Positions 21,834-32,700 of a DNA stretch of 64,000 nt are shown in pieces. The first letter of the stretch is position 1; each line of letters opens with the position of its first letter. Both the position numbers and the translations under genes were made by a program. The notes beneath the pieces are model-generated. The model ran no database searches. It was not told the DNA's origin and saw nothing but the letters and a program-made list of their open reading frames with translations. This DNA comes from Octopus sinensis (Eukaryota). The stretch covers positions 83,080,001-83,144,000 of the forward strand of contig NC_043004.1 of NCBI RefSeq assembly GCF_006345805.1, written 5' to 3'.

Positions 21834-21890
21834 CTATGATGGTTTTGTCTGAATCACCACTAGTATGTAAGTAATAAAACTCCCCATCAT
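21834..21890 (-). CDS. GRL paralogue 2, exon 4 (TM7b, stop)
   Basis: Acceptor CTTTTCAG|ATG. Encodes MMGSFITYILVVIQTKPS*, matching the TYxxxxxQ signature of the GR/GRL family. Confidence 0.85.
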   Translation of the reverse strand: MMGSFITYILVVIQTKPS

Positions 21891-23160
21891 CTGAAAAGTA
21901 GAAGAGAAAAGTAATTAACTGTTATTTTTAAAGAATTAACAGGATAGTATATATAGAAGTTTATCTCTGTATCTATAAACGGCAAAATGTATATGTATCT
22001 GTGTGTCCTTTATACAAATCCAGTTTTTTACGAAAAGGCTCACATTTTCTATGGGTTTCAAAACTGTCTGAGGGTGGTCGTGAAGATCTTTTCATTTCTC
22101 CACTCACCCAGAAAGCCATTAAAAAATCGATAAATTGACTCCTTATGCCCATAATTTATTTTGTGGCCAAATTGGAGTTTTTCGCTTTTTCTGCCTTCTT
22201 TTTTTTGTTCGACTAATGGCATGTGCACAGTCTCACTAATTTTCCATGAGTATGCCATTCCAGATGTGAAAACCGAAATCCAACGAATATTAATTACTCT
22301 CAATAAAAGCTCCAACTAGCTCAAAAACAACGAAACTGGCCCGGGTTGAAATGTGATAAGAGACTTAGCTCTTGATTTCGTGAGAAATGTTTACTGCGAC
22401 CCAGCAACTTAGTAAAGCTGAAGAACCGTTGCAATAGGTGTGCGAATGTGGGAGAAGAAGAATTTGATTAAAATCATATGATAATTAACTGAACGTGTTG
22501 TATTTTATTTTACCCATTACTAGGAACTTTCCAGCCCCTTCTCGCGAATATACATATATGATTGCCTTGTACGTGGATTTGATGGAAGGAAACTGGCATA
22601 TATCCATGTTTGCATGTATGTATGTGGTTTAATAAGAGATAAAGATAGCCGAATAAAGATAAGCTTGCAGTATCATTATAGCATATCCCAGTATTTAGTT
22701 ATCCGTTGTTCAGGTCTTAATTTCAAAAGCTCCCGATATAACCATCGTCAAATTTTTTAGGCTTCTATAAAACATGCTAGGATCGATCTAATCATGTAAT
22801 CAGTATCTGTAAGTTGATAAGTATTGCGTCTATGTTAGACATGAGATAGAACGTGGAATTTATTCGTTTCGAATGGAAATATTTTACCAAGTAAATATTC
22901 CTGCGTGTATTTTAACCAGCCATATGCAAAACCTAGGAGAAGCATTTGTATTAAAAAAAATAAAGAATTGTAACTGAATGGTGCAAAATATTTATTCAGT
23001 TAGGAACTATAAAAATCATTCTAACACAAGAGTTTAAACATAAATGCACATTATATATATATATATATATATATATTATTGTGTGTGTGTGTGTGTGTGT
23101 GTGTGGTGTGTGTGTGTGTGTGTGTGTGTGTGTGTGTGTGTGTGTGTGTATGTATATATA

Positions 23161-23825
23161 TATAATCACAATTTAGGTTAGTTGAAATATGTTTGTCACA
23201 TATTTCAACTGCTAAAGGCAAATACACGGCAGTTACCTTGGAGAAAAAATCTCAGATCTTTTCGGTTTGAACGGCAGTTTTTTTTCTAGCGGTGTCATAT
23301 GAAATTGTCACCAATAATTATGACCCTAGTATCGATCTATTGCATTTCAATCTGTTTTAAGTTTAGGGTTAGGGGTGAGGAGAAGGGTATCTTTTTTCTC
23401 TTCACAAATGTAAACAAACCGAATCTGTTTCTTAAACGAGGGACTTATTCATACGGCACAAAATGTTTTTTACCTCAATAGACGTCAGTGATTGGTTGAA
23501 ATTGCAGAAATTGAAGAAAAAAACAACAAATATCTTACAAACTATAGAATTTTCTCAATAATGCCAAGAGAAAAAGATGTTTTATAAACACATTCTACCT
23601 GTATACGAAGTTTAAAATTATGTTAAAAACTGCTGTTCACGCCGAAAAGATCCAAAATCTCTCTTATGGTAAAACGGTGAGAGACGGCGACACTGAACGA
23701 ACGAGGTGTTTTCACACCTGTATATCATAAGAGAGATTTTTTCTCCACGATAACAACACGGCATTTGCCTTTAGGAGTTGAAATATGCGACAAACATATT
23801 TCGACTAACATAAATTGTGATTATA
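23161..23825. mobile_element. Foldback/MITE with ~90-bp terminal inverted repeats, interrupted by a nested MITE
   Basis: TATAATCACAATTTAGGTTAGTTGAAATATG...GGAGAAAAAATCTC at 23161-23253 is inverted at about 23733-23825. Confidence 0.7.
23254..23653. mobile_element. MITE with ~28-bp TIRs and 8-bp TSD
   Basis: TIRs (A/G)GATCTTTTCGG..TGAAC.GCAGTTTTT. TSD AAAATCTC at 23246-23253 and 23654-23661. Confidence 0.8.
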
Positions 23826-24235
23826 CGTTAACACTGCTTAGCGCATCTATTCCGATATATATACATTATCAATTCGAGAATGTCAGGTCCTCATTAGGGA
23901 TTAAATAATCCCAAAACATATATATGTGTGTATGTATAGTATGTATATAGGTTGGGAATGGGATTGCTGGAAAGATTATAGCTTTAAGGATATCGGGTAA
24001 ACCCGAGTTGGAGGCACATATTTTCGAGTTATTTTATTGGGCTTAGTAAAACTGAAGAACTGTTGCAATGTATGTGTGAATGTGGAAGGGGAATAATTTG
24101 AATAAAATTATATGATAATTAATTGAATTTGTGGCATTTTATTGTATCCAACAGTAGGAACTTTTCATGACCTCCTCGTGTATATATATATATATATATA
24201 TATATATATATATATATATATATATATATATATTT

Positions 24236-24470
24236 CAACAATTGAGGGTAAAATTAATTAATTATTAATCAGTTTCACCAAGTGTTCAGTATGTAAAGGG
24301 ACCATTATAGGCGAATTCAAAATATTACATTATATATAAGGGCTTAGTAAAATAAATTACTTTGCCACATACTGAACTCATTAGAAATACCAGTGAAGAA
24401 ATTTCTTTAGCTGCTATTCTATGAGTTCAGTATGTGCAAAGTAATTTATTTTACTAAGCCCTTATATATA
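24236..24470. repeat. (TA)n-flanked foldback element
   Basis: Inverted arms at about 24331-24389 and 24415-24470 (AAGGGCTTAGTAAAATAAATTACTTTG..CATACTGAACTCAT). Confidence 0.7.
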
Positions 24471-29627: not shown

Positions 29628-30659
29628 TATTATTATTATTATTATTATTATTATTATTATTATTATTATTATTATGCCGTAAGTGTTAACTCAAAGAGAT
29701 TGAAAATATAATATTTAGATAATCATAATAACTGTTAGAAGGGTTGGAATAGTCAACAATGATGAGTCGCGCACAGTAGGCATGGAATATCTGATCAAGT
29801 TCAAGCAAGGTGTCACGAACACATTGATCATGATAACGATCAGAGTCTAAAGTGTAGACGGATAAAAATAAAATGGAGAAGAGGGAAAAAAGATTGTGCT
29901 TGAATGTTGGATGTGAATGAAGAGAATGTACTAGAAGAATATCAGAGAAGAATTGAAAATGAACACGAAGTGTGTGATCCAACAGTAGTAAAAAGTGGTG
30001 AAGAAGGAGTAAGAAACGAAGGAAAGGTAAATGAAGAAAATTAAGTGCATAGGGAAAGAGATGCAGTAGAACAAGTGATATCAAATGTGGAGCAAGTCTT
30101 GGCTTTTGAACAAGTCTTAAGGGCGGGTTGGAGACTCTAGAAATGATGCGACTGCAAATTTGGGGGCAGAGAATGAAAGCGCCAAATGTAAGATATATGG
30201 GGAGTGAAAAAGTAAGGAGAGCCTGAGGCAAACAAAACGGTATTCTTAGCCTGGTTGAAAGAGAGAACATCAATGAAACAACCTACTTAATCATAGCCGG
30301 TGCTAATTTTGCGGCTGTCATAAAAGGATAGAAGCGGATGACAGCTGAAGAATAGGAAAGAAAAGAAAGGACCAAAGTGGAGGAAGAAACTGGAAGGCAG
30401 AGTAGGGCAACAAAATACCAGCTGTTATTTGATAAAATACATTTCGGTATTGCAGACGCTGGTTGATAAGATTGAATGTAGTATGATCCGATTATAAGAA
30501 AGCATATTACATGATACCGCAGAGTTGAATGAGTCAAACAATGGGCATGTTTGGAATGGCAGAAAATCTGGAGAAAATGATGAATGAAAGTATGAAACAC
30601 CATAGTGTTTTGATAGGAACCAAAGGAAAATTCCGAAGGTGAAAATCAGACGCTTATAT

Positions 30660-31330
30660 GCCATGGTGAAATTTTATCTTCATTACTATTTGTAGTGGCC
30701 ATGGTATTGCTCAGTTTCATATTACTGAAACTGAAAATATTTTATGATTTGGGGAAAGGGTATGGTCCGATAAATCATCTCCAAATAATTGATGATATAA
30801 AACTTTGTGCGAAAAATGAAAAGTAACTGGAAAGACTTGTACATACTGCCCTTTTGTTCCCGAATGATGTAGAAATGGAATTTATGCTTAGAAAATACGA
30901 TATTTTAATAATGAATTAAAGAAACGTCATCGAAAATACTTATTCAAGAGCAGTGCCAATTGTCAGGTTTAGAGTTGGAATTGTGGATTGGACAAAACGT
31001 AAGATGCAGAAACTGGGCAGAAAAATAGAAAGTAGTCGACAATATACAGTGTCCATAATCAAAAATCTGAAATTAACCGGAGTTACTTAAAAAGAAACCA
31101 GAGTAAATGATGTTTAATTGTTGTGGAATAATGTGCGCAGAAGGGATGAGACAGTTAAGTGTATCATTTTCATGCCAGCATAAGGAAGTGATTAAAGGTA
31201 GTGAATAAAGTACAGGTGATCAAGACTTGAGAAGAGGGATGAAAACGAAATTGAAAGAGAGCATGTTAAGCACACTTAAGAAAAACCTTTGCATGGTCAG
31301 GTTAGGAACGCCAAGGTGCAAAATCTTGGG
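30660..31330 (+). mobile_element. Decayed R4/Dong-like RT fragment
   Basis: INHLQIIDDIKLCAKNEK at about 30772-30825 resembles the R4 HLLYMDDIKL motif. Many stops. Confidence 0.45.
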
Positions 31331-31746
31331 ACCCTTAAAAAACAGGGCCATTGAAAAACGAAACAAAGAGCATTGTTGTAGCACTTTAAGGTCCAGTGTA
31401 TTGCATGAAAGATCAGCTGTAAAACCAGATGTTGAAATAGCTTTGCGTTCAAAGGACAATAGCTTTCCATTTTTCTTTCTGAAATGTGGATGAAGATGTC
31501 ATCATAAAGAAAGCGGACTGTCTGCTATCTAAAATTTTTGAAGTGCCTACTTTGCGGCAAGGAACGCAACTGAGGGCAGCAGCTTAGAATTCCATCATTC
31601 ACCAAATGTATACTAAAGAAGATGGATCAGTAAACGTGTGGCAACATATACGTCGGTGCAACAGCATTGGAATATTTTACGATTTGGTAAAAGACAAAAG
31701 ATGCAATTAAGATTGGGTATTATGAAGATATTGTAAAAACACTCAC

Positions 31747-32700
31747 CGATTTATTTAAATGAATTCCACACAAAATTAATAATATTAAATAAAAGAAACA
31801 GCCAGTTGCCAACATTGACATATATAGGTATGAGTAGAGGTTACTTTTCAGTAAACGGTTTATAACCCCGTAAGTTGCAATACAACAACTAAAATTGCTA
31901 GCAACAACAATAAATCCTGATGTTAGTCGTAAAGATTCATTTAGAAATTTCAGTGTCCTTATCAGAGTTTCATGAGCGCTACATATTTCTGTGATATCTT
32001 TCTGCTTCTTAATGAAATTTGAATGGTCAGGTTGCTTCTCCGTTACATAACGTTCGGCTTCAGTTGCCAACTTGTTGAACTCATAGCTGAGTGTAAATCC
32101 GATTATCAGACCTAAGTGCAAATCAATTACCAAAAGTATAAGTGAAATGGAATTAAGTGCAGTTTGTATTCCTAAAACTGATATTTTAGATATATCACTG
32201 GTTGATATTGGAAACGTTAGGAACCTCATCAAATCGTTATTCAAATACGGTGCGCTAAAATCTACAAATATGTTAGAAAGGATGGTGAAGCAAATAATTG
32301 CATAAAATGTCTTAAATGAATACATGATATTCATGATGGAATATTTTTCATCATCATCTTCAAGTTTAATTTCGGCGACAGCTTCAGCCAGTTGTTTAGT
32401 TTGTGATTTTCTGAAGAGTTTTAACAATGCAAACACAGAAAGACTGCCTCTGAAAAACACCGTGAAACCATACAAAAGTAAGAGATGAATTTTAATTTCC
32501 CCATATAGTATTAAAGTAACAATGTGACGAATAGGGTTTATAATCAAATACAAACAGAACAGAATATAAAGTGCTTGAGAACAAATTGTTGTAAATATTG
32601 GTGACTTCAATGATGAAATAGTCATGCACGATTGGATAAAATTATCACATTTCTGATAGAATTCCAGTAGTTTAAAGAACTGAGTTTCTTTCACTTTCAT
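31747..32700 (-). CDS. GRL paralogue 2, exon 1 (318 aa, TM1-TM6); full gene join(32700-31747, 28157-28089, 26182-26093, 21890-21834) = 389 aa
   Basis: Multi-TM ORF with YEFNKL and HETLIRTLKFLNESL. It ends ..GIHLNKS at donor TCG|GTGAGT (phase 0), followed by three short phase-0 exons as is typical of the GR/GRL family. Confidence 0.85.

Follow-up and report, generated by a model that had tools for sequence, protein, structure and literature searches.

Animal gustatory-receptor-like (GRL) proteins, or Class-A seven-transmembrane ion channels (7TMICs), have in common the seven-helix fold of insect odorant and gustatory receptors (OR/GR), a motif in the seventh transmembrane helix (TM7) and three 3' phase-0 introns (PMC7746228; bioRxiv 10.1101/2023.08.30.555482). 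The published motif, (T/S)Yhhhhh(Q/K/E)(F/L/M), is diagnostic but not definitive, and divergence at its positions is common (PMC7746228). Tetrameric assembly through the anchor domain, ligand-gated cation conduction and an intracellular N-terminus also count as traits of the family. In insect structures the ligand pocket is built from S1-S6 and the pore from S7b, while S7a makes up the anchor together with the cytosolic portions of S4-S6. GRLs are already known in molluscs. Work on cephalopod chemosensation has so far centred on chemotactile receptors, G-protein-coupled receptors (GPCRs) and ionotropic glutamate-type receptors (IRs) (PMC11682238). Here we describe a four-exon GRL gene of Octopus sinensis, found on the minus strand of a 64,000-nucleotide stretch of contig NC_043004.1 (positions 83,080,001 to 83,144,000), the whole of which is called the window.

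Two described systems invite comparison. In cockroach Gr60a-m, tandem long first exons are spliced onto three shared short final exons, and some isoforms are pseudogenic (PMC6175461). In gene models the octopus loci show a similar layout, here in a mollusc. The open literature yielded no description of shared-exon splicing of GRLs outside arthropods, nor any study devoted to GRLs in cephalopods, to how they expanded or are spliced, or to a threonine gate, although subscription papers or supplements could hold one. The cephalopod chemotactile receptors, pentamers derived from nicotinic acetylcholine receptors, are likewise an expanded receptor-channel family in octopus; their fold and origin are unrelated, and expression and ligands have been shown for them (PMC11526382), whereas the octopus GRL gene is known from sequence. 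The non-arthropod GRL repertoires described in the sources cited here are small, with two to four genes (Trichoplax, Nematostella, Acropora, spionids). O. sinensis records, by comparison, name at least eight distinct first exons besides that of the present gene.

The gene is an intact member of the octopus GRL (7TMIC) family. Its four exons are:

Exon 1, 31747..32700, minus strand: 954 nucleotides (nt) encoding 318 amino acids (aa), from the ATG to the donor TCG/GTGAGT; the variable first exon, with the N-terminus and helices S1-S6, the predicted ligand-binding part.
Exon 2, 28089..28157, minus strand: 23 aa, phase 0/0, placed by its splice sites; 19/23 residues identical to the paralogue P0004.
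Exon 3, 26093..26182, minus strand: 30 aa, phase 0/0, predicted S7a and anchor-domain hairpin, placed by splice sites and tblastn.
Exon 4, 21834..21890, minus strand: 18 aa and a TAG stop, predicted pore helix S7b, placed by acceptor, stop and motif scan.

The three introns (3589, 1906 and 4202 nt) are all in phase 0, each with a GT donor and an acceptor made of a pyrimidine tract and CAG. Across six canonical splice sites and 10.9 kb, the exons join into one frame of 389 aa with a single, terminal stop and seven to eight hydrophobic stretches. A sequence-only reading had proposed this structure, and its exons, phase-0 GT-AG introns and 389-aa open frame were all borne out. It had missed an inner AG acceptor at 28115, which would yield a short, 9-aa form of exon 2. 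This form matches the short isoforms of LOC118764607, for which long and short forms of exon 2 are modelled as isoforms X1/X3 and X2/X4.

A search with exon 1 as the query, among proteins of 174-557 aa, gave relatives that include O. sinensis RefSeq proteins. P0004 (LOC118764608 X1) is also 389 aa long. By tblastn it matches exactly exons 2, 3 and 4 in the window (E 1.5e-6, 2.4e-14 and 6.2e-6), so the three small exons are not a product of chance. Identity to P0004 is 94% in exon 3, 46/48 over exons 3-4 and 65/71 over the C-terminal 71 residues. At the column of the exon 1 donor, 11 of 33 aligned relatives carry on as spliced proteins and 16, unspliced, read 'VS', the read-through of GTRAGT; this comparison concerns the first donor across relatives. 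A tree of the exon-1 region, built from 32 of the 33 rows (P0017 was too short), places the exon in a clade of 16 rows with support of 95/100; the rows are not a per-species count. Clade, junction positions and motif ending are shared with O. sinensis LOC118764605-608 and LOC118764548 and with O. bimaculoides LOC106880719, LOC106874590 and A0A0L8FL56. Each is listed as an uncharacterised protein, and UniRef labels A0A0L8FL56 'Gustatory receptor'.

Scanning exon 4 recovers TYhhhhhQ followed by T in place of F; the TYxxxxxQ named earlier is present, but the sequence-only reading had overlooked that it ends in Q-T rather than Q-F. The last position is likewise T in 13/13 Octopus entries of the published animal-GRL file (PMC9998090 Source data 4). 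It differs from the F/L/M of the published motif (PMC7746228) and from the gate residue of insect OR/GR structures, which is F (V in MhOr5). With threonine where the gate normally has phenylalanine, gating or permeation would differ.

Comparison with Orco and GR structures had been set beforehand as a check on the family assignment. When exon 1 and one full-length paralogue were modelled, their predicted structures matched the OR/GR seven-helix, or 7TMIC, fold. They share it with insect structures solved by cryo-electron microscopy (Orco 6C70, MhOR5 7LIC, BmGr9 8VC1, DmGr43a 8JM9 and DmGr64a 8JME) at 6-15% sequence identity. OR/GR structures filled the top Foldseek ranks, and their match stood far above all others among the 50 best structural rows. 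Gene anatomy, relatives and structural matches all support the earlier assignment to the GR-like family, with its fold and intron pattern.

Among proteins of 174-557 aa, the closest record found with exon 1 is 69% identical, and the gene is absent from the RefSeq-derived GRL file of PMC9998090, in which its neighbours appear. It therefore seems to be unannotated, which fits the suggestion that annotation had passed over it. Other members of its cluster are already in RefSeq; in PMC9998090 the octopus members stand in an uncurated PSI-BLAST file, and the main text mentions neither octopus nor molluscs. We regard the gene as a newly described member of a known family, in a form specific to octopuses. 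Source data 4 of PMC9998090 also holds GrlHz and PHTF entries for Octopus, and in it the isoforms of O. sinensis LOC118764548 vary in both their first and their last exons.

How are the long first exon and the three short exons related to those of neighbouring loci? Exon 1 is only 39-42% identical to the first exons of LOC118764607, LOC118764608 and LOC106880719. The cassette formed by exons 2-4 is a third near-identical copy of those in LOC118764607 and LOC118764608, from which it differs at 5/57 and 6/71 residues. Across the first junction, identity between the gene and P0004 rises from 7/25 to 19/23. The ratio of exon-1 distance to constant-part distance is 9.8 for this pair. It is 2.7 between two orthologues and 1.3-1.9 for three distant GRLs with a poorly conserved exon 2. 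From this jump and this ratio it follows that the shared cassette was probably duplicated or homogenised recently, long after the first exons diverged, a conclusion drawn from proteins rather than from paralogue DNA.

Gene models of four other octopus loci place two or more first exons on one cassette. Isoforms X2 and X4 of LOC118764607 share 45% of their residues in exon 1 but 57/57 in the remainder; for P0004 and P0017 the figures are 49% and 71/71, and for P0011 (O. sinensis LOC118764606) compared with P0022 of O. bimaculoides they are 44% and 71/74. By eye, different first exons also stand on one C-terminus in LOC118764605 X1/X2, LOC118764548 X1/X4 and O. bimaculoides LOC106874590 X1/X2. 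The consecutive protein accessions of LOC118764605-608 suggest that they form one cluster. As these database models imply, the cluster probably acts as arrays, several long first exons being spliced onto one set of three short exons. Going by the insect GR/OR structures, the ligand pocket would be encoded by exon 1 (S1-S6), and the pore helix with the greater part of the anchor domain by exons 2-4. Which ligand is bound would then depend on the variable exon, whereas assembly and permeation would depend on the shared ones; an array would vary ligand specificity and keep assembly and pore constant.

Two further GRL first exons, both overlooked by the sequence-only reading, lie in the window:

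LOC118764606 first exon, 7121..8122, minus strand: 334 aa, 334/334 identical to P0011, with a donor GTAAGT at 7120.
Broken GRL first exon, 57679..58363, minus strand: ATG at 58363, stop at 58276-58274, frameshifted and truncated.

The former lies in an open reading frame (ORF) at 8194-7073, with its ATG at 8122. The full identity to P0011 suggests that the window derives from O. sinensis or a very close relative. The C-terminal exons of LOC118764606 were not found in the 64-kb window and presumably lie beyond position 1. The broken exon is upstream of the 389-aa gene and is interrupted at about 58222-57845 by a dispersed repeat with nine other copies in the window. It was recognised by tblastn (53% over 47 aa, E 4e-10; a second piece, E 0.005) and blastn (68% over 149 nt). 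No copy of exons 2-4 follows the broken exon, and a similarity search found exons 2-4 of the intact gene once in the window. One live and one dead first exon thus precede the cassette in the window. Contigs about 88% identical to exon 1 occur beside the exact copy in runs X4 and X5 (window 32517-32736 and 31910-32105) and point to closer paralogues elsewhere in the genome.

The product is predicted to join three other subunits in a tetrameric ligand-gated cation channel and is likely to serve as a chemoreceptor. Several points weigh against this. Exon 1 and the paralogue were folded as stand-ins for the 389-aa protein; Foldseek gave no match at E<=0.001; and in the P0004 model predicted confidence (pLDDT) is below 50 over the last 58 residues. 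Pfam 7tm_7 (PF08395) matched neither exon 1 alone nor P0004 at the curated cut-off of 26.6 bits; P0008 scored 25.1, and P0009 (30.3) and P0011 (31.7) pass. Here too, exon 1 and paralogues were scanned in place of the spliced protein. The gene model rests on genomic sequence and homology, and the isoform evidence consists of automated gene models. The hydrophobic stretches and the missing 7tm_7 match for exon 1 would also suit a GPCR or some other seven-helix protein outside the 7TMICs; yet exon 1 has no GPCR match in Pfam, the 50 best structural rows include no GPCR and the OR/GR matches contradict it, so that we give this explanation hardly any credence. Among the sources cited, the only non-arthropod GRL with a studied function, NvecGrl1 of the sea anemone, takes part in patterning the body (PMC5850775), so a non-chemosensory role is possible; heat is detected by Gr28b(D) and CO2 by GRs (PMC11526382). 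The gene might accordingly serve as an internal nutrient, temperature, light or developmental sensor. Against this, first exons in the clade diverge fast (39-52% identity between paralogues), and there are a dead copy and tandem expansion. Chemoreceptor families, which evolve by birth and death of genes, show just this combination. Annelid GRL expression has been found in the head region, which bears chemosensory antennae (PMC11730519). We infer a chemosensory role and lean against an internal one, which we nonetheless take seriously. It is unlikely that the gene is a recently silenced relic, its frame intact and its expression lost. No protein record was found, the surroundings are rich in transposons and a dead paralogue is close by; but 389/389 codons are open over 10.9 kb with all six splice sites canonical, exons 3-4 have hardly changed relative to P0004, and GR transcripts are typically rare (PMC5850775).

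Whether the locus works as an array is a separate matter. It may instead be a stand-alone four-exon gene, born of whole-gene tandem duplication, making one protein and owing its C-terminal likeness to strong selection or gene conversion. The single live first exon upstream and the single set of exons 2-4 in the window, and the cassette's differences from LOC118764607/608, all suit such a history, and in GRs conservation is highest at the C-terminus (PMC6175461). Set against these are exon 2, poorly conserved in distant GRLs yet 83-100% identical among these cassettes, the adjacent loci modelled with alternative first exons, and the dead first exon that lacks a cassette. We put the stand-alone history at somewhat less than an even chance. 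It can hold for this locus today while the whole cluster is an array: with one live first exon in view, this cassette may make a single protein. Our broader proposal is tentative and, on balance, doubtful: that octopuses have a third, overlooked chemoreceptor system beside chemotactile receptors and IRs, consisting of arrays of many variable ligand-binding first exons on a few shared threonine-gate pore cassettes in sensory cells of sucker, lip or olfactory organ, under-counted as annotation drops the small exons.

The remainder of the window is retrotransposon debris and microsatellite. A head-to-tail duplication (53410-55204 and 55192-56988; 99.8% over 1797 bp), with a zinc-knuckle (zf-CCHC) ORF in both copies, is either very recent or an assembly artefact. 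At 45783-50732 (plus strand), three degenerate tandem copies, 85-88% identical, carry a similar ORF (longest 464 aa) without a Pfam match, which we take to resemble retrotransposon ORF1. The segment 45205-45721 is self-inverted (94.6% over 518 bp) and belongs to a repeat found again, in inverted orientation, at 50942-51326. Long interspersed element (LINE) ORFs lie at 35056-37629 (minus strand; 858 aa, endonuclease and reverse-transcriptase domains) and 42561-43835 (plus strand; 425 aa, reverse transcriptase). In intron 1, a fragmented element at 28872-30900, with a 179-aa ORF lacking a Pfam match, is presumably the tail of a non-long-terminal-repeat retrotransposon.

An expanded GRL family offers named, clonable candidates for further ligands and organs in octopus chemosensation. 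The shared-exon design would make the repertoire cheap to enumerate, one constant-exon primer capturing all isoforms, and the clade-wide Q-T gate is a natural variant with which to test the gating model of this channel family. An array design in octopus would also mean that the splicing layout of insects either goes far back in protostome history or had two origins.
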